A program made the translations under genes and the position numbers. Shown here piece after piece: positions 6,113 to 63,284 of a DNA stretch of 64,000 bases. Position 1 is the stretch's first letter. The number at the start of each line of letters is the position of its first letter. Origin of the DNA: Eledone cirrhosa (lineage: Eukaryota); assembly GCA_964016885.1 (NCBI GenBank), contig OZ024753.1, positions 29,512,001 to 29,576,000 of the forward strand, written 5' to 3'. Below the pieces are notes generated by a model. The model made no database searches. It saw only the letters and a program-made list of their open reading frames with translations, and was not told the origin of the DNA.

Positions 6113-6250
6113 GCGAGGTGAATTGGCAAAGTCGTTAAAACAACGGAGAAAACACTTCGTTGTACTTGTTCCAGCTCTCTGCACTCTGCGTTCAAATCCT
6201 GCCAAGGTTAAGTTTGCCTTTCATCTTTATGGAGTCGGTAAATAAAGTAC
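6113..6250 (+). mobile_element. Diverged tRNA-derived SINE, truncated at the PLE
   Basis: A box-like TGGCAAAGTCGTT, B box GTTCAAATCC and the central TTTGCCTTTCATC domain. Confidence 0.7.
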
Positions 6251-6265
6251 TTGTCCTGTACTTTG

Positions 6266-7966
6266 GATTTAATTATAGAGAGTGGATGGTTAGAACACGT
6301 ATTTACATATTTAAGGTTCTCATTTAGTTTATATGTAAATACGAGTTCTAACCATCCACTTTCTATAATTAAATCCATCCCTAGAAATGTTTCTCTTAGA
6401 ATCTCCCGCCTGTCGTCCAACCAACAAACCTTCAAAGAACATGCCGAATATTATGATGATGCACTTAGGAAGGCCGGACACCTAGATAATATAGAGTATA
6501 TAGTCGAAGATCACCAAAACACCCAAAATAAATCCCATAGGGGTAGAAATAGCACAGAATCACCACCATACATACACTACCGCAATAGACACAATAATAG
6601 TCGCACACCACCAAACAGAAGGCGATGTAAAGAGTATATATGGTACAACCCGGTCTATAACAACTCTATTAAAACCAATCTACCCTCACAATTCTTTCGA
6701 TTAGTTAAAAAACACTTTCCAACATCACATAAATATAATAAAATCTTAAACCCTAACACTATTCGACTTTCATATTCAACCGCCTCTAATATTGAACAAC
6801 ATATAAAAAAGCTTAACGCAAAACGGTTGTATAAACGCCTTCCAACACATAACAATACACGTAAAACATTAGCTATAACATCACAAAACAACAAACAACA
6901 TCCCGTCCTACCTAAGCAACCTCATCAACCCATCCATGCCAATACAACAACGCAAAATTATAACTGTAACTGTGTCCAACCAGGAATGTGTCCGTTGAAC
7001 GCAACATAATATACAAATGTACTATCGAATCGGATAGACAGAAGTGGTACTATGTGGGATCTACAGCCACCTCCTTCAAATCACGCCTTTATAGACATCG
7101 TTACTCGATAAAACATGAAAACCAGCGTTATGTAACAACACTCGCAGACAAGGCTTGGCTGCTGCGTGAAAATAACCAACAGTTTAACCTAAAATGGGAT
7201 ATAATAGCAGCTGCCCCTCCATTATCCCACGGACAGGAATTTTGTAAATTATGTAATATGGAATTATTTTGTATTATGAAATCCAAAAACATTTTATTAA
7301 ATAACAGAATAGAGCGATCGTTATACTGTAACCATCGCTTAAAATCTACATTTTCATATTACAAATACTACCAAGATTGAACGCATGTCTCCATCTCCGT
7401 TTGATTGTCAAAATACATATTAACATTCTCTTTTAGTCTTAATTCTATCAACTCTTCTATTATTTACCATTTAATATTAACTGCTATAGATAAAATGAGA
7501 TTTCTTAATTCAATTCCCTAATGCATATACCAGCTGGCTACTAGCATTGATGTTATTCAGTAGCAGTCGAAATCTCCCCCTTCCTTAATTGGACACTTCA
7601 TAATTAATACTTACACCAAATGACCAGCCCTGTCCATTGTTCAATTGGTCAAGTATAGATAAAATAGGCACTCCCAAAAATTCTTATTTAGATAAAATAA
7701 ACCATTTACTCATTGTATTCTCATTAGAAACCCTTTATATACTTGTTTAGCAGTAAATTGAATTACCATCTGTCATATACTATCCTCTCTCTTCTTCCTC
7801 TATTACAACTAATATAAATACTTCAATTTTTCTGATTTTTTCCAATTTATCCAAAATCTCTGAAGAAGTGACAACTGATTATACATTTGCTATCGAATAC
7901 TTGCTAACATTATATGATTACGCAAGCAGCGATACATAGGTATTCCGTCTGTTACAGAAACATCTT

Positions 7967-8251: not shown

Positions 8252-8273
8252 CGTTATGAAGGCATTATATTAT

Positions 8274-8461
8274 TGGATTGGCAGTATCGGTAGAGGGTCG
8301 GACGCCATGCTTTAACGCATAGAGTTACGGCCCTTGCCATTCTGAGTTCAAATCCCGCCGAGGTTAACTTTGCCTTTCATCCTTACGGGGTCGATAAAAT
8401 AAAGTACCAGTAATACACTGGGTAATTGCTGGCCTTGTGCCAAAAGTAGAAACAATTATTA
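8274..8461 (+). mobile_element. tRNA-derived SINE (main family, Nin/Deu-like central domain)
   Basis: TGGCAGTATCGGT (A box), GAGTTCAAATCC (B box), TTTGCCTTTCATCCTTACGGGGTCGATAAAATAAAGTACCAG core and (ATT)n tail. More than 10 copies in the window. Confidence 0.9.
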
Positions 8462-9662
8462 TATATATTTCTCTCTCCTTCTCTGGAAGAAATCAGTTGT
8501 GTTCAGGCTTGAAGAGATGGACTGCACCAGGTTTAAAACGCCCAAAACACACCTTATGCCACTATAGTGTCCCATACGACACCATCTGAAGTTGCGGGTG
8601 CATACATTTATATATATATATATATTGGTAAAAGGAAAAGAAAATGCTGACAAATTGTTCCCAGTGAAAAATAGTTTAATTAGGAATAAGTAAAAATTGG
8701 TAATAAGTATTGGTTAGTATTCAGTTCTAGTTTTAAGTTTTTACCGGTTGCGCATTTCTAATGCTTTTCAAAAATAATTTTGAGATATATATATACAACA
8801 TTTAACGTGGTCCAGTTCAAGAATAGAAAGTGAGAAAGAAATATAGAGGAAGAATCGACACCATTTAAATAATGTTCAGCTCTGCAAAGAACGTTTCTAT
8901 ATTGCATTGTTATAATTACTACGTTCTGCATGGCTGTATGACCTTTTAATGTGGCAATAACTAATCGAATCGATATAGGACTGAAACTATTTTAGTGCTT
9001 TGCTATACAGATTTCAAACCATTGGTTAATATTTACTGTTCTAATTCAGAGGTCAACAATATAAATATAAACGAATGATGCATAAGTACAGATCCCTTTA
9101 TTCTTGTACTGCTTCAGTAATTTAATTGTGCCATGTTCTGGCACCCATTTCAATGGTACAGTAAACATATAATATCCCAGCAAGTGAACGCTATATATTT
9201 TTTATGTTCCTCTGTGGATGAAACGGAAAGTTAAATATGGCGGAGTTTGAACTCAAAACAGAAAGACACTAAACTATTCACCACCATTTTTTATTTTTTT
9301 ATTTTTTAGTTTCTAAAACTTCTGCCGTCTACTGACCTTTATAGCAATAATACTGTTTTCTAATTCTCTGGTTTCTAGCACAGCTATATGCTTTGTTAGA
9401 AAGATATATTTGAATTACTCTACTGCAGTATTTGATGGATATATTATGTTATCGATCCTGCGAGGATGAAAGGCAGTACAGACCGCAACAGGATAATGAC
9501 TCAGACTATAAGCGACTGTGTTTAAATACCGCAAACTTTTTTATCCACTGCTCCAACGATTCTGTCAATTCACTGCCCTTGACGTAATTATAAGATCACC
9601 ACCACCACCACCACTACTACCACCACCATCACTACCACCACTACCACCACCAACAACAACAA

Positions 9663-13730: not shown

Positions 13731-14040
13731 ATTAATCGATCTATCTATATGCATATTAGATATGCATAAGTAAGTCTTTGAAAATGTATACTCACATATA
13801 TCAATTCGTGGGTATATATTTATTTCCTTTGATATTCGTGTTCGGAGTTTTGTCAACTTTTATCCCAGGGTACGTGGGTGTATTTCGTCAGTTAAAATAT
13901 TCTACATGTAATAGCCTGTATTGATTTACACACATATGTACATATATACACACATACATACATACGGAAATACATACATACGCACATACATACATACGTA
14001 CGTACATACATACACACATACATACATACGTACGTACATA

Positions 14041-17017
14041 CATGGTGAACGAAATAGCTGGCAATTATCTGAAGGCTATACGATCTAAAGGTGTAGAAAC
14101 GACATTTGAAACGCTTAATATTTTGTTATATGTTTCAGCTGTCACATTGCTATCATATAACACACATCTAAAACCACGCAATCAAGATACAAACAGAAAG
14201 CCTGAACCAGCGTGGATGCGAAATTTAAAAACCAAAATTTTGTCCCTGAGACGAAGTATCTCACACATCGCAGTCGTTATGAAATGCAACATAGAGAGCA
14301 ACTTCACACGACACCAGGAAGACCTAAAAAAAGGGTTAGAGAGACGATTTGGAGATACAAAATTTAAAACTTTGAACTCCAAATTACACCAGTTGAAACA
14401 ACAACTCACAGCTACAACAGAAAGACTAAAATATAAGTCAACAGCACATAAACGACAAGTGCTAAATAGATTGTTTGCCAGAGATCCTAAATCAGTTTAT
14501 CGCAGCTTCGGTGGCAAAAGCTCAATCCCTGTAAATGACACCCCTTCAAAAGAACAGGTTGAGAGCTACTGGAGATCGGTATGGGAAACGGATGACGGAT
14601 TCAACAGACAAACTAATTGGCTAAAAGAACTGGAACAGGACTCCTGCCAACATGTCCAGACAAAACAATATGACATAGATGGGTCAATACTGGAAACAGC
14701 TCTACAGAAAATGTCGAATAGGAAATCGCCAGGCCCAGACCTCATTACAGGATACTGGTTGAAGAATTTCACTTTCTATCGGCAAGATCTCATACGGCTG
14801 TTTACAGACACCATTAAAGGCACACAAGAACTGCCCAGATGGTTATCAACTGCCACTACTCTCCTCATTCCCAAAAATAGCCAAACTACCCTTGCTAAAA
14901 ATTACCGCCCAATAGCCTGCCAAAACATCATGTATAAATTATATACTGGGTGCCTTAACCAGTTCTTACAGGATCACTGTGCTACCAACAACATCATAAC
15001 ACCTGAGCAAGCTGGTGGAAAGAGGGGGGGGTGCATAGATCACCTACTAACTAATAAAATGATTCAGGAAAAAACAACAAAGAATCGCAGAAACATGACT
15101 GTGGTGTGGCTGGACTATCAAAAAGCATTTGATAGTGTACCTCATGGGTAGATTATTAAGGCTTTACAGTTAGCCAAAGTCCCACAACCATTGGTAGCTG
15201 CTGTTGAACGCCTGACCAAGAACTGGTACACCAATTTGATCCTTAGAAGTGAGAAAGAGCAAGTTAAGACTGATAAGATACATTACCAGAAGGGCATCTT
15301 TCAGGGTGATAGCTTGTCGGTGCTACTCTTCGTTCTCTCACTGAATCCACTATCTTACCTACTCAGGAAACAAGGTGGACAAAGAAGTGGGTCCAGAAGT
15401 ATCTCCCATCTTTTCTTTGTTGATGACCTGAAGTTGTATGGGCCAAATATCAATGACATCAAGAAACAATTGGACCTCATTACACAATTTTCAACCGACA
15501 TCAAAATGAAATTTGGTGAGTCCAAGTGGGCATATTTGGCAGTAAAACGTGGAAGAGCTGTGCCCTCCTCTAGAAATCTAGAGATGAACGGCCTGACAAT
15601 ACAACCTCTACAGTCAGGTGACAACTACAGATATCTTGGACAGGATGAGAATGTCAGATATGATGGACCCATAAATAAGGAGAGAACCAGAACTGAATAC
15701 CTCAGAAGAGTAAAGAAAATATGGTCATCAGAACTGTCAGCGTACAACAAATACATTGCCCACAATACTTATGCTGTGCCAATTCTAACGCCAACATTTG
15801 GCCTGCTGAACTGGTCATTGCAAGAACTAAGTGATATGGATGTGAGAACTCGCAAACTTCTCAGTGTTACTGGGAACTTTAACATCAATGGTGATGTGGA
15901 TAGGCTATACTTCTCACGCAAGGAAGGTGGCCGGGGTCTAAAATCCATATTAACAACATATGAGACCCGGATAGTAACACTGAAGCAACACCTTCAACAG
16001 AGGAAAAAGGTTGGCAACCATCTTGCCCAGGTTTATGAGCATGAAAAAAAATATATCATTAGAATAGCGACTGATCTGGAGGAGAGATATGGAATAAAGC
16101 CTGATATAAATCTCTCACCCAGAGAAATCGGAAGATCCTATTCAATGTTCAAACAAGATAAAAAAATTGACCAATTTACAGAAAAAGTTGTGCATGGATA
16201 CTTGAGACGTAAAACACAGATCATAGAGGGGATAAACCACTCAAAAATCCTGGCATGGAGTTCCGACAAGTTTATGACATCACACCTTGAGGGATATCTC
16301 TATGCAATACAGGAACAAGAACTCCCTACCAAATATCTGCTGCACAAAAGAGGAGGGCCAGCAGCTGACAATAAATGTAGGCTATGTAAAACAAAGATCG
16401 AGGATGTAAGCCACATTGTTGCCAGCTGCGAAAGAATGTCATCTCGCTACTACCTCCCCATGAGACACGATGGGATAGCTAGAACCATCTGGAACGCACT
16501 TCGGAAAACAAAATTAACAACAAACGAGGAAGAATATATTGAGACAGATGGCACTAAGGAATACTGGTGGAACCTGAAAATAAAAACTGCCACCAAATTA
16601 AAGCACAACCGGCCTGATATTGTTGTTTGGGACCACACATTGAAAACGTGTTCTGTTGTGGAGATCAGCTGCCCAACGTTGTCAGAAAAATACAGGAGAA
16701 GGAGGACACCTACGGACCATTGATGAGGAGTTTACAAATCCAGTATCAAAGATACACCTTTAGCTTCATACCCATCATTGTTGGAGCTACGGGTTATATA
16801 CCAACCCGCTTGGACCAAAGTATGACTGAACTTGGATTTGCGGACAAAAAGCGCAGCTCCCTAATTCATAGTCTACAAATGGCTGCGATAGCTGGCATCT
16901 TCAAAATTTGCAAAACATTCTTGCGATTCAAGGGATGACAATTTCTTTTCTTTTACAACCTTGCCACTAGGAAGGTGGCCGGTCAAAAAAAATATACTCA
17001 AAATTAAGAGAAAGAGA

Positions 17018-17018
<1 letters not shown>
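14041..17018 (+). mobile_element. R4/Dong-like RLE non-LTR retrotransposon, family A, 5'-truncated, in (TACA)n
   Basis: (TACA)n on both sides (~13930-14041 and 17019-17090). RT plus RLE coding region and an ~80-bp 3' UTR. Confidence 0.9.
14042..16938 (+). pseudogene. RT plus restriction-like endonuclease ORF; in-frame TAG at 15149-15151, frameshift near 16673
   Basis: Motifs KSPGPD, NYRPIAC, WLDYQKAFDSVPH, GIFQGDSLS, FFVDDLKLY, CRLC..H...C, RHD and RPDIVVWD..VEISCP. ORFs 14042 and 15191 share a frame. Confidence 0.92.
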
Positions 17019-17048
<30 letters not shown>

Positions 17049-17091
17049 CATACATACATACATACATACATACATACATTCATACATACAT

Positions 17092-17385
17092 GGCGGCTGC
17101 CAACTCGTTTTCGAGTACGGCCACTACTTTATATCCATGTAGGAGAACACCTACCGATGCGCTGAACGAGTGTGACTTTTTAGTCCGGCCAGCGACTTGA
17201 AAACTCTGGTACAAACACTACACTTGTGACAATTATTGACACATAGTGTTGGGCCCATGGTACCATGTGACGACAAGTGCAGAGAGATCTCCAGACATAA
17301 AGCAATGCCTGTGCCGTGAAGCTTTTATAGTGAGCAAAGGCACTGCACAAAGCCAGTCCCACTCTCTTAACCAAGATGATATTTT
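17092..17385 (-). mobile_element. 5'-truncated copy of the RTE-derived bipartite element with (TATG)n tail
   Basis: Near-identical to 28706-28998. The minus strand encodes CHKCSVCTRVFKSLAGLKSHTRSAHR*. Confidence 0.75.
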
Positions 17386-17585
17386 ACATACATACACACA
17401 GACATACATACATACGTACATACATACATTACATACATACACACATACATACATACATACATACATACATACATACGTACATACATACATACATACATAC
17501 ATACATACATACATACACACATCCGTACATACATACATACATACATACATACATACATACATACATACATACATACATACATACA

Positions 17586-19731
17586 TACTGGTCCCCAAGA
17601 ACAAAGACACCCACTTGGCAAAAAACTACCGACCCATTGCATGCCAGAACCTAATGTATAAGATGTATACAGCCTGCCTCAACCTATTCCTCCAAGATCA
17701 CTGTGAAAATAATAACATCATCACAGATGAACAAGCAGCTGGAAAGAAAAGGGTTTGGGGATGTGTTGAACAACTCCTAATCAACAAAACTGCGATGTCG
17801 GAGGTGCGACAACTTAGGAGGAATATGACTACAGTCTGGCTGGACTACAAGAAAACTTTCGATTCTGTTCCCCACTCTTGGATGATAAAGGCCCTCCAAC
17901 TTGCTAAAGTCCCAGACATTATTGTCAGAGCCATAGAGAGGCTGTCTTCTTCTTGGGCTACTATCCTAAGGTTAAAGACAGAGAGGGAGGACTCTATTTT
18001 CACTGATAAAATAAAATATTACAGGGGTATATTTCAGGGGGACAGTCTCTCTGTGATATTGTTCATCTTGTCATTAAACCCCTTGTCCTTTCTGCTCAAG
18101 AAATGTGAGGGATACATCATTGGCTCACAGGAGGACAGAAATACGAACCTAACCCATAACTTCTTTGTGGACGATCTGAAACTCTATGCCAAGAACATGG
18201 ATGGGATGAAGAAAAATCTTGACCTGGTTACAACGTTCTCAAAGGATATAGGAATGGAGTTTGGCCAAGATAAATGCTCATACATGACTGTAAAGCGGGG
18301 AAAAACAACAACCCAATCTAGCAACATTGTCATCAATGGTTTAACTGTTTCACCGATATCTGATGAGGACTGCTACAGATACCTGGGGATAGATGAGAAC
18401 ATATCCTATAATGGTATCTGTAATAAAGAACGCCTAACCAGGGAATACTACACCCGATTAAGAAAGATCTGGTCATCGGAACTCTCTGCGCAAAACAAAA
18501 CAGTGGCTCACAATGTGTTTGCTGTGCCTGTCCTAACACCAACGTTTGGAATACTCAATTGGACGATAGACGAAATCCGAGCAGTTGATGTTGGAACTCG
18601 AAAAATACTGAACAACACCGGAAACTTCCACATCAACAGTGACATAGACCGCCTTTACTTGAAACGTAGGCAGGGAGGCAGAGGCCTAACATCAGTCCAG
18701 ACAACATTTGAATGTCACATCATATCTCTCCGACAACATCTACGAACCTCGAAGCGTAGGAGCCCGCTTCTCGAGCAAGTCTATCTGCATGAAACAGATA
18801 AGATCATGAGAGTTGGGAAGGAACTCCTTGAGAGATATTCCCTGTGTGATAATCAAATCTCACACCCAGGGATGTCGCTCAGCAGTATCGCAGTGAATCC
18901 ATGGATGAAAAACTGCATGCCTATCAGCAAAAAGTCATGCATGGATATGTTGCCAGGAAGCTTCAGAGTGAGAGTAATATAGATAAGGAAAGTAGTCTAT
19001 CTTGGACCAACAACCGCTATATTGGCTCTCACTTTGAAGGATACGCTTTTGCAATCCAAGAACAGGAGATTAGAACGAAATACCTGATTCACAAAAGAGA
19101 TAGGGATGCAGTCAAAACACCTAGATGTGACAACAAGTGCAGACTCTGCAGAACTAACATCGAGGATATCACCCATGTCATCAGCAGCTGCCCAAAGATG
19201 TCATCGCGGTACTATCTACCTATGAGGCATGATGTAGTGGCCAAAACACTGTACAATGCAGTTTGTAAAAAAGATAGCCCCGATGATAAACACATTAAAA
19301 GCTACAACAATGTGGAAGACATCCGTGTACATAATATGAAAGAGTACTGGTGGAATGTTCCAGTAAAAACCCCAATAAAATGCAGGCATAACAGACCAGA
19401 TATTATGATATGGGACAGGGAGAAGAAAACATGCACAGTAGTGGAAATTAGCTGCCCAGCAGATGCCAATATAATATCAAAGATTAGTGAAAAGGAGAAT
19501 ATTTATGCAGAACTGATGAGAAATCTGCAGATACTCCACCCTGATTACACCTTCAGATTTATGCCTGTGGTTATTGGGGCACTGGGATATGTTAGTAACT
19601 GCCTCAATACAAATCTTGAGAAGCTAGGCTTCACAGGAACAGAAAGAACACAACTAGTTAGGAAATTACAAGTACAATCCATTAATGGAACAGTAAAAAT
19701 ATGTAAAACATTGCAAAAATGTTGCATCTAA
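17586..19731 (+). pseudogene. RT plus RLE ORF, frameshift near 18860
   Basis: Motifs NYRPIACQN, GIFQGDSLS, FFVDDLKLY, CRLC..H...C, RYYLPMRHD and HNRPDIMIWD..VEISCP. Confidence 0.92.
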
Positions 19732-19964
19732 TAACTGCATATACACATGCACAGATACAAAGCATATACACATGCACACATACAACTCAAAACATATACA
19801 CCCACACATACAATAACATCCATATCTACACATGCATGCATGCAGACATACATACATATCTACCTAGTTGATGTGTAAATTCCAATGAGAGAGTCTTGTG
19901 TCTATGTTAGAAACCGACTCTCTCTCTATTGGTAAAACTTTGTGAAATTATAAAACCAGAAGAA
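17586..19964 (+). mobile_element. R4/Dong-like RLE retrotransposon, family B, 5'-truncated, in (TACA)n
   Basis: Begins directly after (TACA)n and ends CCAGAAGAA followed by (TACA)n. 3' UTR shared with the 29406-29900 copy. Confidence 0.92.
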
Positions 19965-20244
19965 TATACATACATACATACATACATACATACATACATA
20001 CATACATACATACATACATACATACATACATACATACATACATACATACATACATACATACATGCTGATGTAATTGGAAATCATCATGCAGGAGTTTTAT
20101 CGAAAAAAATGTAATGTAATAAGAAATGTTTTGAAGATCCAGAACGGAAAAAGTAAGCTTTGCCAACATCAATTTTTTTTGCATGTTATAAAGATATCCT
20201 TTTTATGCATATACCTGGTTCGCTTTTCGATACCCTTTTCCCTT

Positions 20245-20698: not shown

Positions 20699-20815
20699 AG
20701 AACATATTAAAGTTTAAGCAAAGAATCGCTGCTTAAATTATTTATTATTACTATATATATATATATATATATACGATAGTAAACAAATGGAAATTATATT
20801 TATAAAACCATATTT

Positions 20816-20879
20816 ATTTCATTATACATATTTCAGGGATACCATATTAAAAATATGGCATGCCTTCGTCAGATAAAAT
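20816..20879 (-). ncRNA. Minimal hammerhead ribozyme (mirror copy)
   Basis: Reverse complement of 21211-21274. Confidence 0.8.
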
Positions 20880-21210
20880 ACAATATATAAACTGTTTTAT
20901 AAATAATTTTGACGTACCATAAATATAAGCCACCATAAATATAAGCCACCATAAATATAAACCACCATAAATATAAGCCACCATAAATATAAACCACCAT
21001 AAATATAAACCACCATAAATATAAGCCACCATAAATATAAGCCACCATAAATATAAGCCACCATAAATATAAACCACCATAAATATAAGCCACCATAAAT
21101 ATAAACCACCATAAATATAAGCCACCATAAATATAAGCCAGCTTCCTACCTTAATGGTGGCTTATATTTATGGTACGTCAAAATTATTTATAAAACAGTT
21201 TATATATTGT

Positions 21211-21274
21211 ATTTTATCTGACGAAGGCATGCCATATTTTTAATATGGTATCCCTGAAATATGTATAATGAAAT
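21211..21274 (+). ncRNA. Minimal hammerhead ribozyme
   Basis: ATTTTAT-CTGACGA-AGGCATGCCATATT...AATATGGTATCCCT-GAAA-TATGT-ATA-ATGAAAT. 7-bp stem I, long stem II and AUA triplet. Confidence 0.82.
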
Positions 21275-21429
21275 AAATATGGTTTTATAAATATAATTTC
21301 CATTTGTTTACTATCGTATATCTACTCCAAAAACTTGTCGAGTGCTTTATATCGGTTATAAAATATTTACTTGTTGTAACCCAACAATTTTAAATAAAAC
21401 TTTTGCATATATATATATATGGAGAGAGG

Positions 21430-21460
<31 letters not shown>

Positions 21461-21535
21461 GTGCTACCTGAATATGCATAACTAGTGGATATCCTAACAG
21501 TAAAATACAGGAAAATAATACAATATAATAGAATA

Positions 21536-21718
21536 TAATTGTTTCTACTTTAGGCTCAAGGCCAGCAATTACCCAGTGGTACTTTATTTTATCGACCCCG
21601 TAAGGATGAAAGGCAAAGTTAACCTCGGCGGGATTTGAACTCAGAATAGCAAGGGCCGTAACTCTATGCGTCAAAGCATGGCGTCCGACCCTCTACCGAT
21701 ACTGCCAATTCACCGCCC
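21536..21718 (-). mobile_element. tRNA-derived SINE (main family)
   Basis: Full head, core and tail in reverse. Confidence 0.9.
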
Positions 21719-22367: not shown

Positions 22368-23858
<1,491 letters not shown>

Positions 23859-27877: not shown

Positions 27878-28387
27878 TACTTGAAATTTAATCTCAAACT
27901 ATTCAATATCAATGACAACCGCATCAATTATTTGCATCCAGTTAAACAAATCCTCTCGTTTCAACATTATCCAAAGAGCCTCTTAATAAATATCAATAAT
28001 GACATTCGATGATTCCGACACACTAATAAATGAAGATATATAAGTATTTTGTCCTGGTAAACAATAAAATACACCAACATAAACTAATTACTTTTAAAAT
28101 GAATTAACTGTCATATCTTACAAGAATGAAAGTATTTTCGAAAACATTAATGTGAAAAACAAAATTATTTATCCATTCATTTTTACACACGCACGCTATA
28201 TACTGTCTGTTATAATTTGTAAATTAACGTAACACGATGGAAATTTTGTATTATTGCTGACAGGTATAAGCTAATCACTGTCAGCAATACATCAATATAA
28301 GTGTAAATGAGTATATATGCTGATATAAGCTTATATACAGCCAGCCAACTATCCACCATACACACACAAATACGTACATACATACAT

Positions 28388-28644
28388 GATGGCTGCAAAC
28401 TCTGCTAAGAGTAGTGCAATCGCTTGTAACAGATCCTGAACAAGTAATGCCTGTGCTTCGAAGGCTTTTTAAGTGGGGAAAGGCCTTGCACTCGACCAAT
28501 CCCACGAAAAGGAGAACTTGTCAACATCGGATGCTTCCGAACCGAAGGGGGTTTTTTTTCAGAGTTTCCCTCTCCTAGAAAGGTGTTGCGACAACTAGGG
28601 GCCTTTCACTCCCAGGTGGAAAAGAAATCTACTATTTGAAAGGA
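28388..28644 (-). mobile_element. Shorter relative of the RTE-derived bipartite element, in (TACA)n
   Basis: Shares TGGCTGC.AACTC, AATGCCTGTGC, GTCAACATC and CAGAGTTT.CCTCTCCTAGA with 28706-29310. Confidence 0.6.
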
Positions 28645-28705
28645 TACATACATACATACATACATACATACATACATACATACATACATACATACATACA
28701 TACAT

Positions 28706-29310
28706 GGTGGCTGCCAACTCGTTTTCGAGTACGGCCACTACTTTATATCCATGTAGGAGAACCTCTACCGATGCACTGAACGAGTGTGACTTTCTAGTCC
28801 AGCCAGTGACTTGAAAACTCTGGTACAAACACTACACTTGTGACAATTATTGACACATAGTGTGGGCCCATGGTACCATGCGACGACAAGTGCAGAGAGA
28901 TCTCCAGATATAAAGCAATGCCTGTGCCGTGAAGCTTTTATAGTGAGCAAAGGCACTGCACAAAGCCAGTCCCACTCTCTTAACCAAGATGATATTTACC
29001 AAAAAGAAGAACAAGTCAACATCATTGGATACCATCAGGGTTGCAGGTGTTATATCAGAGTTTTCCTCTCCTAGAATTCTGCCTTGACAAAGGCTAAGGG
29101 GTCATCTCTCCCGGTGATTTTGGATGGCCATTGACTCTTAAGAGCTCCTTTGCCCTTTGACAGGTTTTTTTTTAGTCCTGCAGGATGTCCAAAGTCACCC
29201 TCCTCACCAAGAAACCTTGGTGGGGTTGCCAGTTTAGTCGCCAACGAGCCGACCATGAGACAGGTTGTACTGGGATACATGTTACCAGTAGCACCAACTG
29301 GTGACCTGAC
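28706..29310 (-). mobile_element. Non-autonomous RTE-derived bipartite element (~605 bp) with (TATG)n tail
   Basis: Structured GC-rich 5' part joined to a C2H2-like terminus HKCSVCTRVFKSLAGLESHTRSVHR* and a short 3' UTR. (TACA)n on both sides. Second copy at 17092. Confidence 0.75.
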
Positions 29311-29405
29311 ATACATACATACATACATACATACATACATACATACATACATACATACATACATACATACATACATACATACATACATACATACATACAT
29401 ACATA

Positions 29406-29900
29406 CAGCAGATGCCAATATAATATCAAAGATTAGTGAAAAGGAGAATATTTATGCAGAACTGATGATAAAATCTGCAGATATTCCACCCTGATTACAT
29501 TTCAGATTTATGCCTGTGATTATTGGGGCACTGGAATATATTAGTAACTGCCTCAATACAAATCTTGAGAAGCTAGGCTTCACAGGAACAGAAAGAACAC
29601 AACTAGTTAGGAAATTACAAGTACAATCCATTAATGGAACAGTAAAAATATGTAAAACATTCCAAAAAATGTGTACATATACACATGTACAGATGCAAAG
29701 CATATACACATGCACACATACAACTCAAAACATACACATCCACACATACAATAACATCCATATCAACACATGCATGCATGCATACATACATATCTACCTA
29801 GTTGATGTGTAAATTCCAATGAAAGAGTCTTGTGTCTATGTTAGAAACCGACTCTCTCTCTCTATTGATAAAACTTTGTGAAATTATAAAACCAGAAGAA
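29406..29900 (+). mobile_element. 3' fragment of Dong-like family B in (TACA)n
   Basis: Near-identical to ~19456-19964 (ADANIISKISEKENIYAEL...GTVKICKTF plus 3' UTR). Confidence 0.9.
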
Positions 29901-29931
29901 CATACATACATATATATATATGTGTGTGTGT

Positions 29932-30608: not shown

Positions 30609-30663
30609 CTGAGATTATATTATCGAGCCCTCTTTGGATTTTAGTCTTCAATTTTATTATTAT

Positions 30664-30715
<52 letters not shown>

Positions 30716-30797
30716 ATAATAATAAAATTGAAGACTAAAATCCAAAGAGGGCTCGATAAGGAAAATATATATCAAATATATAAGAACCGTAGAGCAA

Positions 30798-31234
30798 ATA
30801 TTTATTAAATAACAAATTAAAGTTTAAGCAAAGAATCGCTGCTTTCACCCTTAACGGGATCTTCTGAAACTAACAAAGTCAATCTGTAAACGCAGAACTG
30901 GATATTTCAAAAAACGTTGCAACCGGAGGAAGACATGTTTTCCTGCTTGGTACGGGTATGTTCTTTGTAGAAATATTCAGATGTTGTTTCTGCATGATGA
31001 ATATAAATCAGTAGAGTGCTCAACCGAAGGAGCCTTATTCATCATGCAGAAACAACATCTGAATATTTCTACAAAGAACATACCCGTACCAAGCAGGAAA
31101 ACATGTCTTCCTCCGGTTGCAACGTTTTTTGAAATATCCAGTTCTGCGTTTACAGATTGACTTTGTTAGTTTCAGAAGATCCCGTTAAGGGTGAAAGCAG
31201 CGATTCTTTGCTTAAACTTTAATCTGTTATTTTA

Positions 31235-36990: not shown

Positions 36991-37171
36991 GGTGATGATG
37001 ATGGTGATGATGATGGTGATGAGGATGACAATGATGATGATGATGATGATGACCGTGATGATGTTTACTCACTGCCAGAGAATTCTATCAAACAAGTATT
37101 TCTTGGTCGTATTTATCTATATTTTTATAATTAAACTTTATGCATTAATGGGTTAATATAACGACTATCAA

Positions 37172-37354
37172 TATTTGTTTCTACTTTTGGCACAAGGCCA
37201 GCAATTACCCAGTGTATTACTGGTACTTTATTTTATCGACCCCGTAAGGATGAAAGGCAAAGTTAACCTCGGCTGGATTTGAACTCAGAATGGCAAGGGC
37301 CGTAACTCTATGCGTCAAAGCATGGCGTCCGACCGTCTACCGATACTGCCAATT
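37172..37354 (-). mobile_element. tRNA-derived SINE (main family)
   Basis: Reverse copy of the 8274 type. Confidence 0.9.
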
Positions 37355-37411
37355 AATAATGTTGATTTACAAAGGCGGCAATACTGTTGTTGTTGTTGTT
37401 GTCGCCGTCGT

Positions 37412-44647: not shown

Positions 44648-44837
44648 GGGCGGTGAATTGGCAGTATCGGTAGAGAGTCGGACGCCATGCTTTGCAGCAG
44701 TTACGTCCCTTTACGATCTGAGTTGAAATCCCGCCAAGGTTAACTTTGCCTTTCATCCTTACGGGGTCGATAAAATAAAGTACCAGTAATGTACTGGGTT
44801 ATTACTGGCCTTGTGCCAAAAGTAGAAACAATTATTA
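44648..44837 (+). mobile_element. tRNA-derived SINE (main family)
   Basis: Full head GGGCGGTGAATTGGCAGTATCGG through the tail. Confidence 0.9.
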
Positions 44838-44870
44838 TATAATCTGGTATGAGGTTTTAATCAGTTCTTA

Positions 44871-52022: not shown

Positions 52023-52032
52023 GTAACAATGA

Positions 52033-54291
52033 AACTCTTAAGGGGCAAGCCAAAAAACTAACCAACTGGAAATCACCAGGCCCAGATGGTGTGCAGGGGT
52101 ATTGGATTAAACATTTAACATCCCTCCACCCGAAGCTGACGGCCATGTTCAATGACTGCTTGGTGTCGGGTGAGGTGCCAGAGTGGTTGACAAAAGGTAC
52201 CACAGTTCTGATAATGAAAGACCGAATCAAGGGTAATGATGTTACCAACTATAGACCTATCACATGTCTGCCCGTAATGTGGAAACTGTTGACGAGCATT
52301 GTGTCTGAGGAAATCTACCATCACCTCCACACAAACAACTTGTTGCCGGACGAACAGAAAGGATGCCGAAAGAAGTCACGTGGTACAAAGGACCAGTTGC
52401 TTATTGATAAGATGGTAATGGGGAATTGCAGGAGGAGACACACTGATCTTGCCATGGGATGGATAGACTACAGAAAGGCATTTGACATGGTGCCTCATTC
52501 CTGGATCACCAAAAGCCTGGAGATCTTCAGGGTGGCAGATAACATCAGACAGTTGCTGGGCAGGAGTATGGGGTCCTGGGAGACAGAGTTGACACCAACT
52601 GGAGTATCCTTGGGAAGCGTGAAGATCAAGAGAGGTATCTTCCAGGGAGATAGCCTGTCCCCTCTGTTGTTTGTCCTTGCCCTGATGCCCTTGACCATTA
52701 TGCTGCGAAAAGTGAGAGCAGGATACAAGTTGGGAAGGGGAGAGCTTACCATCAATCACCTCCTCTTCATGGACGATCTTAAGCTCTTCGGGAAAAGTGA
52801 GAAGGAGTTGGATGTGCTTGTTGACACTGTCCGTATTTTCAGCAGTGATATATGTATGCAGTTTGGTATTGGTAAATGTGGAGTCATTGTGATGAGGAGG
52901 GGTAGGTTGAGCAGAAGTAACGGGATCCAGATACCAACAGGTGAGATGATAAAGGAAATTGACTCTGAGGAAGGATACAAGTATTTGGGCGTTCTGGAGG
53001 CTGATGGCATAAAGAACAAAAAAATGAAGGAATTGTTAAGAACTGAATACATTCGGAGAGTAAGGAGCGTATTGAAGTCACATCTGAACAGCAGAAATGC
53101 CATAAGCGCAGTAAATTCCCGAGCTGTGTCTATTATTAGGTACAGTGCGGGAATTCTGAGATGGAATGTTGCTGAACAAAAAGAAATGGATAGGAAGACT
53201 AGGAAGCTATTGACTATCTACAACATGTTCCACAAGAGGAGTGATGTCGATAGACTCTACCTAAGGAGATCTGAGGGTGGAAGAGGTCTTATCAGCATAG
53301 AGGACTGTGTTCAGATGGAGAAAAACAACCTATACAAATACGTGACCTATAGTAAGGAGCCAATGCTCAGAGCTGTACTGAAGGAGGGGACAGTAGGCCA
53401 GGGGATATCCAAGGAGGAAATAACATCAAGGAGGAAGAGCAGCCTTAAGGGAAAATCCCTTCATAGTACCTTCTTTGAGAAAACTGAATTTAGAGATCCA
53501 CAGACATGGAACTGGTTGAGAAGAGGAGACCTCAAAAAGGCTACAGAAGGAATGCTAATGGCTGCGCAGGAGCAGGCCCTCAAAACGAAGTGGTTGAAGC
53601 ACCATATCTACAAGGAGGAGGCTAGCCCACTGTGCAGGATCTGTGGAGAGAGAGAGGAGACTGTGGCTCACATTGTGTCCGAGTGTAAACACCTAGCCCA
53701 GACCCACTATAAGGGCTGGAGACACGATGTGATGGGAAGGGTGATCCACTGGCACCTATGCAAAGTAAACAATCTACCACATTCTGAGAAATGGTATGAG
53801 CATAGGCCAGAGGCGGTGATGGAGAACAGTCAGGTGAAGGTGCTGTGGGATTTTAGGATACAGACGGACAAAAAACTGGAACACAATAGACCTGACCTGG
53901 TGGTTGTGGACAAAGAAAAAAGATCGTGCCTGATTGTGGATGTGGCCTGCCCGTTCGACACGAGAGTGCAAGAGAAGGAGAGGGAGAAAATTAACCGATA
54001 CCAGGACCTAAAGTGGGAGGTGAAAAGGATTTGGAACTGCCATGAAGTCAAAGTGATCCCGATTGTCATAGGCGCACTGGGGACTATCTCCAAAGGTTTC
54101 CAGGGATGGTTAAAGAAAATCGGCCCCTTCACGCTTTTTGGAACGCTTCAAAAGGCATGCTTGCTTGGAACGGCAAGAACCCTCCGATACGTCCTGAATA
54201 TCTGAGGCTGCAGGTAGTGGCTTGATATTCAATCCAACGGACTTTCCAGTTAACCAACATCAATGACTGAGATTCAAGGAATAACAATAAC
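52033..54291 (+). mobile_element. Dong/R4-like RLE retrotransposon, family D, 5'-truncated, in (TAA)n with a 17-bp TSD
   Basis: AATAATAGTAACAATGA at 52016-52032 and 54292-54308. Confidence 0.93.
52034..54205 (+). CDS. RT plus restriction-like endonuclease, uninterrupted ~720 codons, N-terminus missing
   Basis: Motifs KSPGPDG, NYRPITCL, WIDYRKAFDMVPH, GIFQGDSLSP, LFMDDLKLF, CRIC..H...C, RHD and RPDLVVVD..VDVACP. The poly-N start in the ORF track is the target repeat. Confidence 0.9.
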   Translation, partial: TLKGQAKKLTNWKSPGPDGVQGYWIKHLTSLHPKLTAMFNDCLVSGEVPEWLTKGTTVLIMKDRIKGNDVTNYRPITCLPVMWKLLTSIVSEEIYHHLHTNNLLPDEQKGCRKKSRGTKDQLLIDKMVMGNCRRRHTDLAMGWIDYRKAFDMVPHSWITKSLEIFRVADNIRQLLGRSMGSWETELTPTGVSLGSVKIKRGIFQGDSLSPLLFVLALMPLTIMLRKVRAGYKLGRGELTINHLLFMDDLKLFGKSEKELDVLVDTVRIFSSDICMQFGIGKCGVIVMRRGRLSRSNGIQIPTGEMIKEIDSEEGYKYLGVLEADGIKNKKMKELLRTEYIRRVRSVLKSHLNSRNAISAVNSRAVSIIRYSAGILRWNVAEQKEMDRKTRKLLTIYNMFHKRSDVDRLYLRRSEGGRGLISIEDCVQMEKNNLYKYVTYSKEPMLRAVLKEGTVGQGISKEEITSRRKSSLKGKSLHSTFFEKTEFRDPQTWNWLRRGDLKKATEGMLMAAQEQALKTKWLKHHIYKEEASPLCRICGEREETVAHIVSECKHLAQTHYKGWRHDVMGRVIHWHLCKVNNLPHSEKWYEHRPEAVMENSQVKVLWDFRIQTDKKLEHNRPDLVVVDKEKRSCLIVDVACPFDTRVQEKEREKINRYQDLKWEVKRIWNCHEVKVIPIVIGALGTISKGFQGWLKKIGPFTLFGTLQKACLLGTARTLRYVLNI

Positions 54292-54311
54292 AATAATAGT
54301 AACAATGATAA

Positions 54312-55590
54312 TAATTGTTTCTACTTTTGCCACAAGGCCAGCAATTACCCTAGTTAATTACTGGTGCTTTATTTTATCGACCCCGTAAGGATGAAAGGCA
54401 AAGTTAACCTCAGAACGTAAAGGGCCGTAAATTTATGTCGGGGAACATGATGTCTGACGCTCTACCGTTACTACTAATAATAATAATGGTTTCTACTTTA
54501 GGCACAAGGCCAGCAATTATCCAGTACATTACTGGTACTTTATTTTATCGACCCCGTAAGGATGAAAGACAAAGTTAAACTCGGCGGGATTTGAACTCAG
54601 ATCGTAATGGGACGTAACTATGCTAGAAAGCATGGCGTCCAACCCTCTACCGATACTGCCAATTCATATATCTTATATATATTATACTATATATATAGTA
54701 TATGTCTTATATATATTATACTATACTATAATATTATACTATACTACTAATAATAATAATGGTTTCATTTATTGGTCACAAGGGCCGACATATAGGGGAC
54801 AATGCAATAGACGGGGACAGTTGGTGGGTTTTACACAAAAGTCGAGTAAAAAATAGGAAAACAACAACAACAACAATAATAATTGTTTCTACTTTTGGCA
54901 CAAGACCAGCAATTTTCCCAGTGTATTACTGGTACTTTATTTTATCGACCCCATAAGGATGAAAGGCAAAGTTAACCTCGGCGGGATTTGAACTCAGTTC
55001 GTAAAGGGACGTAACTGTACTGCAAAGCATGGCGGCGTCTGACCCTCTACCGATACTGCCAATCCACCACCAATAATAATAATAATAATTGTTTCTACTT
55101 TAGGCACAAGGCCAGCAATTATCCAGTGCATTACTGGTACTTTATTTTATCGACCCCGTAAGGATGAAAGGCAAAGTCAACCTCGGCGGGATTTGAACTC
55201 AGATCGTAATGGGACGTAACTATGCTGGAAAGCATGGCGTCCGACCCTCTACCGATACTGCCAATCCAAATACGAGACAAATATTTCTGTACTCGGAAAT
55301 TAATGTCTATAGTTCAGCTATTCACAAAAAAAAAGAAAATATTATTTTTGCCAAAGACTGGATATACACAGAACTAATCGATGAGAGGAACGAGAACAAT
55401 ATATAACAGAATGGCAAATACCATATAACGTATAACAGTAATAATTGTTTCGACTTTTGGCACAAGGCCAGCAATTACCCAGTACATTACTGGTACTTGA
55501 TTTTATCGACCCCGTAAGGATGAAAGGCAAAGTTAACCTCGGCGGAATTTGAACTCAGATCATAAAGGGACGTAACTCTATGCTTCAAAG
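54312..55590 (-). mobile_element. Cluster of five co-oriented SINE copies
   Basis: Copies at ~54312-54470, 54486-54665, 54880-55070, 55085-55265 and 55441-55590. Confidence 0.9.
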
Positions 55591-55692
55591 CATGGTGGTG
55601 GTGGTGGTGGTGGTGGAGGCATAAAGTATATATAGAGAAAAGTAAGAATAACGAAAGGGCTGAACAAATTGAAAACGATAAAGTTGAACTGA

Positions 55693-57303: not shown

Positions 57304-57626
57304 ACACTACATATATATTTTTTTTTTTTTTTTTTTTTTTTGTTTGTTTAATGTATGTATATAGAGATCACCACTACCGGCATCATCTTCATCGCCATCA
57401 TAGCAGCCTGCACATAAATATATAAGTAACTATTGACAACGAGGAGTGTCCCACAAGTCCAAACTGAACATCTCTTGGTTATTTCAGAAAGTTAATTCTT
57501 GATAAGAAACTTGCAATGAACTGGATTGCCGTCTATGGTAGAGATGCTTTTCAACGGCATTGGCGACATGCCATCTAACATAAACTAGATGACAGGGAGA
57601 GTACAACCAATATATATATTGGTTGT

Positions 57627-60600
57627 AAACACACACTAGTGCAGTGACACATACATACATATATATGTAGAGACATAAACACACACTAGTGCAGTGACAC
57701 ATACATACATACATATATATGTAGAGACATAAACACACACTAGTGCAGTGACACATACATACATATATATGTAGAGACATAAACACACACTAGTGCAGTG
57801 ACACATACATACATACATATATATGTAGAGACATAAACACACACTAGTGCAGTGACACATACATACATATATATGTAGAGACATAAACACACACTAGTGC
57901 AGTGATATACACATACATACATATATATGTAGAGACATAAACACACACTAGTGCAGTGGCATACACATACATACATATATATGTAGAGACATAAACACAC
58001 ACTAGTGCAGTGACATACACATACATACATATATATGTAGAGACATAAACACACACTAGTGCAGTGACACATACATACATACATATATATGTAGAGACAT
58101 AAACACACACTAGTGCAGTGACACATACATACATATATATGTAGAGACATAAACACACACTAGTGCAGTGATATACACATACATACATATATATGTAGAG
58201 ACATAAACACACACTAGTGCAGTGGCACATACATATATATGTAGAGACATAAACACACACTAGTGCAGTGACATACACATACATACATATATATGTAGAG
58301 ACATAAACACACACTAGTGCAGTGACACATACATACATATATATGTAGAGACATAAACACACACTAGTGCAGTGGCATACACATACATACATATATATGT
58401 AGAGACATAAACACACACTAGTGCAGTGGCACATACATACATATATATGTAGAGACATAAACACACACTAGTGCAGTGGCACATACATACATACATATAT
58501 ATGTAGAGACATAAACACACACTAGTGCAGTGGCATACACATACATACATATATATGTAGAGACATAAACACACACTAGTGCAGTGACATACACATACAT
58601 ACATATATATGTAGAGACATAAACACACACTAGTGCAGTGACACATACATACATACATATATATGTAGAGACATAAACACACACTAGTGCAGTGACACAT
58701 ACATACATATATATGTAGAGACATAAACACACACTAGTGCAGTGATATACACATACATACATATATATGTAGAGACATAAACACACACTAGTGCAGTGAC
58801 ATACACACACATACATATATATGTAGAGACATAAACACACACTAGTGCAGTGACATATACATACATATATATGTAGAGACATAAACACACACTAGTGCAG
58901 TGACATACACATACATACATATATATGTAGAGACATAAACACACACTAGTGCAGTGGCATACACATACATACATATATATGTAGAGACATAAACACACAC
59001 TAGTGCAGTGACACATACATACATATATATGTAGAGACATAAACACACACTAGTGCAGTGGCATACACATACATACATATATACGTAGAGACATAAACAC
59101 ACACTAGTGCAGTGACACATACATACATATATATGTAGAGACATAAACACACACTAGTGCAGTGACACATACATACATATATATGTAGAGACATAAACAC
59201 ACACTAGTGCAGTGACACATACATACATATATATCTAGAGACATAAACACACACTAGTGCAGTGATATACACATACATACATATATATGTAGAGACATAA
59301 ACACACACTAGTGCAGTGGCATACACATACATATATATGTAGAGACATAAACACACACTAGTGCAGTGACACATACATACATACATATATATGTAGAGAC
59401 ATAAACACACACTAGTGCAGTGACATACACATACATACATATATATGTAGAGACATAAACACACACTAGTGCAGTGACACATACATATATATGTAGAGAC
59501 ATAAACACACACTAGTGCAGTGGCATACACATACATATATATGTAGAGACATAAACACACACTAGTGCAGTGACATACACATACATACATATATATGTAG
59601 AGACATAAACACACACTAGTGCAGTGACACATACATACATATATGTAGAGACATAAACACACACTAGTGCAGTGACACATACATACGTATATATGTAGAG
59701 ACATAAACACACACTAGTGCAGTGGCATACACATACATACATATATACGTAGAGACATAAACACACACTAGTGCAGTGACATACACATACATACATATAT
59801 ACGTAGAGACATAAACACACACTAGTGCAGTGGCATACACATACATATATATGTAGAGACATAAACACACACTAGTGCAGTGACACATACATACATACAT
59901 ATATATGTAGAGACATAAACACACACTAGTGCAGTGACACATACATACATACATATATATGTAGAGACATAAACACACACTAGTGCAGTGGCATATACAT
60001 ACATACATATATATGTAGAGACATAAACACACACTAGTGCAGTGGCACATACATACATACATATATATGTAGAGACATAAACACACACTAGTGCAGTGAC
60101 ACATACATATATATGTAGAGACATAAACACACACTAGTGCAGTGACATATACATACATACATATATATGTAGAGACATAAACACACACTAGTGCAGTGGC
60201 ATATACATACATACATATATATGTAGAGACATAAACACACACTAGTGCAGTGACACATACATACATATATATCTAGAGACATAAACACACACTAGTGCAG
60301 TGACATATACATACATATATATGTAGAGACATAAACACACACTAGTGCAGTGGCATACACATACATACATATATATGTAGAGACATAAACACACACTAGT
60401 GCAGTGACACATACATACATATATATGTAGAGACATAAACACACACTAGTGCAGTGACACATACATATATATGTAGAGACATAAACACACACTAGTGCAG
60501 TGACATATACATACATACATATATATGTAGAGACATAAACACACACTAGTGCAGTGACACATACATACATATATATATATGTAGAGACATAAACACACAC

Positions 60601-62860
60601 TAGTGCAGTGACACATACATATATATGTAGAGACATAAACACACACTAGTGCAGTGACACATACATACATATATATGTAGAGACATAAACACACACTAGT
60701 GCAGTGACACATACATATATATGTAGAGACATAAACACACACTAGTGCAGTGACATATACATACATACATATATATGTAGAGACATAAACACACACTAGT
60801 GCAGTGACATATACATACATATATATCTAGAGACATAAACACACACTAGTGCAGTGGCATACACATACATATATATGTAGAGACATAAACACACACTAGT
60901 GCAGTGACATATACATACATACATATATATGTAGAGACATAAACACACACTAGTGCAGTGACATATACATACATATATATCTAGAGACATAAACACACAC
61001 TAGTGCAGTGACATATACATACATATCTATGTAGAGACATAAACACACACTAGTGCAGTGACACATACATACATATATATGTAGAGACATAAACACACAC
61101 TAGTGCAGTGACACATACATACATACATATGTAGAGACATAAACACACACTAGTGCAGTGACACATACATACATATATATCTAGAGACATAAACACACAC
61201 TAGTGCAGTGACACATACATACATACATATATATGTAGAGACATAAACACACACTAGTGCAGTGACACATACATACATATATATGTAGAGACATAAACAC
61301 ACACTAGTGCAGTGACACATACATACATATATATGTAGAGACATAAACACACACTAGTGCAGTGACACATACATACATACATATATACGTAGAGACATAA
61401 ACACACACTAGTGCAGTGACACATACATACATACATATATATGTAGAGACATAAACACACACTAGTGCAGTGGCATATACATACATATATATGTAGAGAC
61501 ATAAACACACACTAGTGCAGTGACACATACATATATATGTAGAGACATAAACACACACTAGTGCAGTGACACATACATACATATATATGTAGAGACATAA
61601 ACACACACTAGTGCAGTGACATACACATACATATATATGTAGAGACATAAACACACACTAGTGCAGTGACACATACATATATATGTAGAGACATAAACAC
61701 ACACTAGTGCAGTGACACATACATACATATATATGTAGAGACATAAACACACACTAGTGCAGTGGCATACACATACATACATATATATGTAGAGACATAA
61801 ACACACACTAGTGCAGTGACACATACATACATACATATGTAGAGGCATAAACACACACTAGTGCAGTGGCATACACATACATACATATATATGTAGAGAC
61901 ATAAACACACACTAGTGCAGTGGCATACACATACATACATATATATGTAGAGACATAAACACACACTAGTGCAGTGACATACACATACATACATATATAT
62001 GTAGAGACATAAACACACACTAGTGCAGTGGCATACACATACATACATATATATGTAGAGACATAAACACACACTAGTGCAGTGGCATACACATACATAC
62101 ATATATATGTAGAGACATAAACACACACTAGTGCAGTGGCATACACATACATACATATATATGTAGAGACATAAACACACACTAGTGCAGTGACATACAC
62201 ATACATACATATATATGTAGAGACATAAACACACACTAGTGCAGTGGCATACACATACATACATATATATGTAGAGACATAAACACACACTAGTGCAGTG
62301 ACATACACATACATACATATATATGTAGAGACATAAACACACACTAGTGCAGTGGCATACACATACATACATATATATGTAGAGACATAAACACACACTA
62401 GTGCAGTGGCATACACATACATACATATATATGTAGAGACATAAACACACACTAGTGCAGTGACACATACATACATACATATATGTGTAGAGACATAAAT
62501 ACACACTAGTGCAGTGGCACATACATACATACATATGTAGAGACATAAACACACACTAGTGCAGTGACATATACATACATATATATGTAGAGACATAAAC
62601 ACACGCTAGTGCAGTGACACATACATACATATATATCTAGAGACATAAACACACACTAGTGCAGTGACACATACATACATATATATCTAGAGACATAAAC
62701 ACACACTAGTGCAGTGGCATATACATACATATATATGTAGAGACATAAACACACACTAGTGCGGTGACATATACATACATATATATCTAGAGACATAAAC
62801 ACACACTAGTGCAGTGGCATATGCATACATACACAGAGAAACACACTAGTGCAACGACAT
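57627..62860. repeat. Satellite, ~100 units of 46-54 bp
   Basis: Constant TAGAGACATAAACACACACTAGTGCAGTG plus a variable (CA/TACA/TA) linker. Confidence 0.97.

Positions 62861-63006: not shown

Positions 63007-63284
<278 letters not shown>

Follow-up and report, generated by a model that had tools for sequence, protein, structure and literature searches.

Dong-like and RTE-derived retroelements lie in opposite orientations within (TACA)n tracts at two neighbouring loci

Results

Two piles of retroelements in TACA-type repeats

The window, by which we mean the whole stretch of 64,000 bases that was analysed, is microsatellite-rich animal DNA. At two loci in it, Dong-like elements of the families Dong-A and Dong-B are stacked together with the RTE-derived element X and its short relative Y (Table 1). 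The window holds six copies of X, Y, Dong-A and Dong-B in all, and every one of them is inside one of the two piles. A TACA-type repeat on the same strand is present on both sides of each of the six; the RTE-derived elements are on the minus strand in three cases out of three and the Dong elements on the plus strand in three out of three. Perfect TACA runs of at least five units account for 480 of the 64,000 window bases, and so these elements coincide with the repeat far more often than chance would allow. Their junctions comprise two that are head-to-head, one that is tail-to-tail and one that is tandem.

The initial annotation had described an RTE-derived element on the minus strand, a (TACA)n tract and a Dong-B element on the plus strand in this arrangement twice, and we found it at both places, in piles that are larger than had been claimed; locus 1 also has the tail-to-tail junction of Dong-A with X1, which that annotation omitted. 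Its identification of the elements as RTE-derived and Dong-like is supported, as is its view that they pile up in a repeat common to both families, and the third, related short element that it saw stacked in the tract of locus 2 at 28388 is present as Y.

Table 1. Elements and tracts of the two piles, and the Dong-C element of the same window
Feature	Position	Strand	Remarks
Locus 1 pile	13927-20063		TACA / Dong-A (+) / TACA / X1 (-) / TACA / Dong-B1 (+) / TACA
Degenerate TACA tract, 5' side of Dong-A	13927-14043	+	4-mer purity 0.57
Dong-A	14044-17015	+	second RT + REL family, 5'-truncated; RVT_1 and zf-RVT matches
(TACA)18 between Dong-A and X1 3' ends (tail-to-tail)	17019-17091	+
X1	17092-17384	-	5'-truncated copy of X (X positions 312-603)
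(TACA)51 between X1 and Dong-B1 5' ends	17385-17588	+	204 bp, purity 0.84
Dong-B1	17589-19965	+	5'-truncated; RT + CCHC + RHD + PD-(D/E)xK, 3' UTR; RVT_1 E 2e-25, motifs
(TACA)24, 3' side of Dong-B1	19966-20063	+	perfect
Locus 2 pile	28357-29913		CATA / Y (-) / TACA / X2 (-) / TACA / Dong-B2 (+) / short CATA
Degenerate (CATA)n, tail/target of Y	28357-28387	+	31 bp, purity 0.50
Y	28388-28643	-	short relative of X; RTE 5'-UTR motif, short (TATG)n-ended 3' end
(TACA)15, X2 tail and Y 5' flank	28644-28705	+	perfect
X2	28706-29308	-	603-bp non-coding element
(TACA)24 between X2 and Dong-B2 5' ends	29309-29407	+	99 bp, perfect
Dong-B2	29408-29900	+	5'-truncated; end of endonuclease domain and 3' UTR
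CATA, right of Dong-B2 at locus 2			14 bp
Dong-C	52023-54278	+	RT + REL, 38% identical, 728-aa open frame, in (TAA)n

Other repeats share the window with the piles. Elements of foldback or MITE-like type, with inverted arms of 174 and 197 bases at 99% identity, are found at 20766-21324 and at 30807-31232 and 30620-30759; the first of them holds a 16-base tandem array and both adjoin (TA)n tracts, which may be one more microsatellite niche. The segment 31154-31275 is repeated identically at 63087-63208. Two ORFs (6242-7380 and 22512-23858, the latter coming after a 500-base TA tract) look Penelope-like from their motifs, an RT end and a GIY-YIG-like C-terminus; a Pfam search of both returned no meaningful match.

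The Dong elements and their clade

Dong-A and Dong-B encode RT, CCHC, RHD and the PD-(D/E)xK motif of a restriction-like endonuclease, and their best matches among solved structures are R2 proteins, over the RT and endonuclease (E 1e-53). All copies of the two families in the window are 5'-truncated. The start of Dong-A corresponds to roughly residue 135 in a relative of 1098 aa, and the element has one in-frame stop and a frameshift, its PD motif being interrupted by frameshift; the reading frame of Dong-B1 contains one frameshift. The two families are 55% alike, Dong-A is 52% alike to the Argonauta hians protein P0288, and both families match insect proteins and TAA-flanked loci at 36-42%.

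In a quick, unrooted tree of 70 rows that took in loci with 250 or more aligned residues and no named Dong, R2, NeSL or HERO reference, Dong-A and Dong-B belong to one 19-row clade (SH-aLRT 99) with five metagenome loci (L001-L005), and Dong-A groups with the Argonauta hians protein, which makes a coleoid cephalopod the likely origin of the window. Tracts of (ACTT)n stand at the ends of three of the five metagenome loci (5' and 3' in L001, 5' in L002, 3' in L004), and L003 and L005 have no tract at their contig ends. Outside the clade, (AAT)n follows the C-terminus in 17 of the 28 loci whose C-terminus was located; one outside locus, L074, has a 16-base ACAT run, after which its contig ends in ATG/AAT. 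L001, L002 and L004 are also the nearest relatives of Dong-B (49-59%); their 3' UTRs are long, about 1.07 kb in L001 and L004, where TAA-type elements have some 0.1 kb, and (TACT)n and (TACA)n have TAC in common. No Dong relatives were found in viral_contigs.

The published target of Dong is (TAA)n, and it is given for silkworm, mosquito, snail, ostracod, most insects, molluscs and cnidarians in the relevant parts of PMC3812793 and PMC7998251. Dong-A and Dong-B differ from this classical pattern in residing in (TACA)n, with microsatellite on both sides of all three copies, whereas Dong-C in the same window conforms to it. Dong-C falls outside the Dong-A/B clade and is an internal control for the usual Dong target. 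A SINE-like family of about 190 bp with at least 12 copies (8268-8462, 21535-21712, 37170-37360, 44654-44841, 54300-55600 and others) has several of them in AAT-rich repeat right behind Dong-C, in a parallel pile.

Element X and its relative Y

X2 has no long ORF in its 603 bp and is likely to be a full-length bipartite RTE derivative, with an RTE 5'-UTR part, the end of an ORF and a 3' UTR. The assignment of X as a bipartite, non-autonomous derivative of RTE is likewise likely, and is based on its 5'-UTR domain and its anatomy. The 5' half carries a motif that agrees with the conserved domain of RTE 5' UTRs given in the supplement of PMC5786205, in whose RTE/SINE alignments the X/Y motif words occur 122 and 84 times. 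The 3' half consists, in order, of a C2H2 finger (28768-28908 in X2; zf-C2H2_6, E 5e-6 in a profile search), a stop, some 60 bases and (TATG)n. The (TATG)n repeat is at the 3' end of X1, X2 and Y, where tail is not distinguishable from target, and both flanks of X and Y are the same microsatellite. Depth in run X15 is 0.9-1.4 million along X and 8.3 on the unique flank, values that are not copy numbers, and it is flat across the presumed junction of the two halves of X; the element is therefore very abundant and is propagated as one piece despite having no ORF. A contig of run X18, from another organism, leaves X near 28899, close to that presumed join.

Y and X have in common the 5'-UTR motif and, in alignment, the last 30-40 bases. 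Because Y departs from the run X15 majority letter in at least nine places of 256, it is likely to be older than X, or else a minor subfamily. In runs X1 and X18, both from other organisms, there are families with only the first 170 bases or so of X (29134-29301) or the last 40 of Y, and such partial matches suggest that RTE derivatives exchange parts.

A 47-residue query for an autonomous RTE parent of X found no match among longer proteins; there were 316 matches in the representative library, and the 12 of 150 that were scanned are zinc-finger proteins without an RT. A search pattern for the RTE 5'-UTR domain, in the general form of the motif and one letter longer than that of X itself, found none in viral_contigs and 25 stretches in genome_contigs, which are SINE-like, sit in apparently animal contigs and in no case resemble X beyond 54 bases. 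The domain in X and Y is 80-88% alike over 33-54 bases to SINE-like copies in L083-L097. The contigs L081-L105 (genome_contigs, CAXXGD01 and CAXXMW01), which are deposited among bacterial MAGs, contain LINE ORFs and numerous SINE-like copies with the RTE 5'-UTR domain, and look like animal host contamination. An Rfam search of X and Y gave microsatellite artefacts such as mir-297 and no ribozyme match. For an HDV-like ribozyme 5' of X and Y, a strict descriptor had no matches and loose descriptors matched 15-48 of 60 shuffles; a loose descriptor did pick up an HDV-like fold whose P1 pairs with the repeat upstream, but 29 of 40 shuffles matched as well and the fold was dropped.

Joints at the 5' side of X

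Among the best 15 of 335 joints in the raw reads of run X24, seven run from the interior of X into a TACA-type repeat, and they do so at seven points on its 5' side (29015, 29022, 29037, 29114, 29131, 29262 and 29270); the contig of run X18 has such a joint at 29105. X is cut at seven points yet TACA-type repeat then follows, so X is likely to aim at the repeat tract itself. These counts come from sequencing runs with a share of 0.2 or more and register joints to the window stretch, not joints into unique DNA; in run X24 another 320 joints and 2131 loose ends lie beyond the 15. The same run has two head-to-head joints of X with Dong-B. The first links 29142 to 29629 across 13 letters of CATA repeat; its 114 reads have a single start, and its short side measures 28 letters. 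The second links 28863 to 29676 across about four letters (102 reads). In the search for empty alleles, the unique flank had zero depth in run X24 and none of the pieces crossed locus 2.

Position and purity of the tracts

In both head-to-head pairs the common tract is at the 5' end of X, whose tail is on the far side; the tract touches both 5' ends and is therefore not the tail of X. Three of the eight tracts are no element's tail (left of Dong-A, between X1 and Dong-B1, and between X2 and Dong-B2). The 4-mer purity of the outer tracts beside the older elements is 0.50-0.57 and that of the other six is 0.84-1.00, a pattern that would fit a repeat renewed whenever an element inserts, whether through synthesis of the tail, duplication of the target or slippage. 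The chance of finding six elements in two tract loci is P = 0.09 if the window has four such loci and 0.007 if it has eight, the two counts differing in whether they include a satellite whose TACA units are short, and the excess of piling within the window is suggestive only. This satellite (57484-62605) has a unit of about 50-54 bases with (TACA)3 and no X or Dong copy inside, so short TACA units may not serve as a target.

Discussion

We favour, with a probability of roughly 0.7, the interpretation that members of these two unrelated and abundant lineages inserted one after another, independently, into a target common to both, which each insertion would have kept and lengthened. The polarity of the elements, read in the light of target-primed reverse transcription, points to the strands that would be nicked. 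The restriction-like endonuclease of Dong-A and Dong-B would nick the (TGTA)n strand, so that the Dong sense strand reads (TACA)n, while the (TACA)n strand would prime the RTE-derived RNA, probably by pairing of the nicked end with its (UAUG)n tail, which would place the element in reverse orientation. Dong would find its target by endonuclease specificity and X by tail pairing or a preference of the RTE endonuclease, and each insertion would preserve and extend the (TACA)n target for the next. Because the outer tracts are degenerate, Dong-A and Y are likely to have inserted first; X and Dong-B would then have followed in one period. Fixed and opposite polarity means that X and Dong neighbours must be either head-to-head or tail-to-tail, and 16 of 36 random orders with family polarity held fixed give head-to-head pairs in both piles. 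The head-to-head layout is thus not beyond chance and follows from shared target and fixed polarity. Against this interpretation, the perfect 99-bp tract of X2 and Dong-B2, at a site with outer tracts of 31 bp, degenerate, and of 14 bp, is not fully explained; passages of PMC2887409 and PMC13295347 describe RTE insertions as not sequence-specific; and the two head-to-head joints in run X24, with their spacers of 13 and about four letters, also fit co-insertion in one step.

The two piles could instead be copies of a single duplicated block that was afterwards deleted differently in each, given that they are only 11 kb apart, have the same order and orientation and contain partners that are about 97% alike (283 of 292 aligned bases identical in X1 and X2, 477 of 491 in Dong-B1 and Dong-B2). 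This degree of identity in each pair indicates to us that X and Dong-B were active together, and we find the duplication barely credible. It needs two deletions, each ending at the tract; the truncations are reciprocal, with X1 and Dong-B2 as the shorter copies; the masked 2-kb flanks of the loci are not homologous and have in common just one 37-bp dispersed repeat. At all 11 listed sites of the shared region where locus 2 departs from the population majority, locus 1 has the majority letter, so that none of these derived letters is common to the two (384 further rows lie beyond the 11), and locus 1 has private letters of its own at 17149 and, against the loose-end majority, at 19570 and 19713 in Dong-B1. 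More truncation pairs of X with Dong-B occur in another sample (run X24). The two piles are independent insertions, and the initial annotation was right that the truncation points of both partners differ and that this is not a simple duplication. Its mechanism, taken here as random insertion of X followed by entry of Dong into a tract made by the (TATG)n tail, fares less well. RTE tails are said in part of PMC2887409 to generate microsatellites, an octopus RTE with a microsatellite 3' UTR figures in part of PMC9115989, and the tracts beside X tails are pure. A tract made by the tail ought to have Dong at the 3' side of X, and both Dong-B copies are at the 5' side, in a tract that is nobody's tail; the repeat also adjoins X 5' ends at many truncation points, and Dong-A, the sole Dong on the tail side, seems to predate X1 and is bordered by an outer tract that is degenerate. 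We therefore judge such an origin decidedly unlikely. Of the self-reinforcing piles that the same annotation envisaged, the reinforcement is plausible, the outer tracts being degenerate and the inner ones purer, but either family can renew the target.

Two further routes would dispense with insertion in sequence. In the first, a form of twin priming in trans, Dong would cut both strands of a (TACA)n tract and prime on the bottom one, while the top-strand end paired with the (UAUG)n tail of X and primed X, so that both RNAs were copied into one break and the two cDNAs met 5' to 5' as a head-to-head pair. The geometry fits exactly, the partners are of like divergence in both window pairs, the short-spacer joints of run X24 have new truncation points, and the apparent site specificity of an RTE derivative would be explained. 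Such co-insertion is all the same unlikely on balance: the spacers in the window are 99 and 204 bp of repeat, tail-to-tail and tandem junctions exist, and almost half of the random orders already yield the layout. Reads of 150 bases reveal short spacers only and rows at repeats were dropped, so that tail-to-tail joints are under-seen. If co-insertion were true, head-to-head hybrids of two unrelated retrotransposon clades would form in a single event and site specificity would be lent to a clade thought to have none. In the second, elements that had inserted separately would have been brought together afterwards, when their (TACA)n tracts recombined ectopically or the DNA between the tracts was deleted. 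Every junction is indeed a repeat tract, and exchange between tracts on the same strand keeps polarity; yet the near-direct joints of X with Dong-B in the reads leave little repeat for recombination and nothing in the window calls for it, which makes this juxtaposition very improbable.

The piles and their elements have parallels in known systems. TRAS and SART are two families that occupy one (TTAGG)n repeat in opposite orientations; both belong to the R1 clade and are telomeric, whereas here an REL-type and an RTE-derived element meet in dispersed microsatellites. The elements of the R4 clade to which Dong belongs resemble Dong-A and Dong-B in their single ORF with RT, CCHC knuckle and PD-(D/E)xK, in 5' truncation and in having microsatellite on both sides, and differ in their (TAA)n, the nearest relatives of the present elements having (ACTT)n. 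Bov-A, RTESINE and RTE-N, as portrayed in sections of Kojima 2018 (PMC5786205), are built like X from an RTE-domain 5'-UTR part and a microsatellite-tailed 3' end with no ORF; X departs from what those sections describe in having the same repeat 5' of many truncation points, an apparent target preference. Waldo has an ACAY target of the same repeat class (PMC3812793, in part), but it is of the APE-type R1 clade and unrelated to X or Dong, so the choice of target is convergent. Double insertion at a preserved target is a published route to TE dimers in the portion of McGurk and Barbash 2018 (PMC5932611) that concerns them: there too insertion keeps the target for the next and partners differ in 5' truncation, although those dimers are of one family and mostly head-to-tail, while the piles here combine two clades on opposite strands. 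Piling itself is thus a known outcome of shared targets.

What appears to be new is a Dong subclade that targets tetranucleotides and an RTE derivative that seemingly targets a microsatellite. Among APE clades, Tx1 and R1 alone are said to include site-specific members (PMC13295347). In Octopus vulgaris RTE and Dong-R4 have both been recently active (PMC13282606, in part), and the passages of PMC13282606 and PMC9115989 on these octopus elements name no target; the comparison with print also drew on parts of PMC4640811 and PMC3774820. Our literature search found no (TACA)n Dong, no microsatellite-targeting RTE and no such pairs, though families of this kind may be present in Repbase, in Dfam, in Kojima and Fujiwara 2003/2004 or in what supplements the octopus papers. 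The shift within Dong from (TAA)n to (TACA)n or (ACTT)n provides natural variants for learning how R2-type proteins change target, and bears on the retargeting of such proteins as gene-insertion tools. Were an RTE derivative to home to the sequence of its own tail, it would be an exception to RTE non-specificity and would allow a simple test of tail pairing as a rule of targeting. Shared targets that renew themselves may help to explain hotspots of transposable elements and the richness in microsatellites of cephalopod-like genomes.
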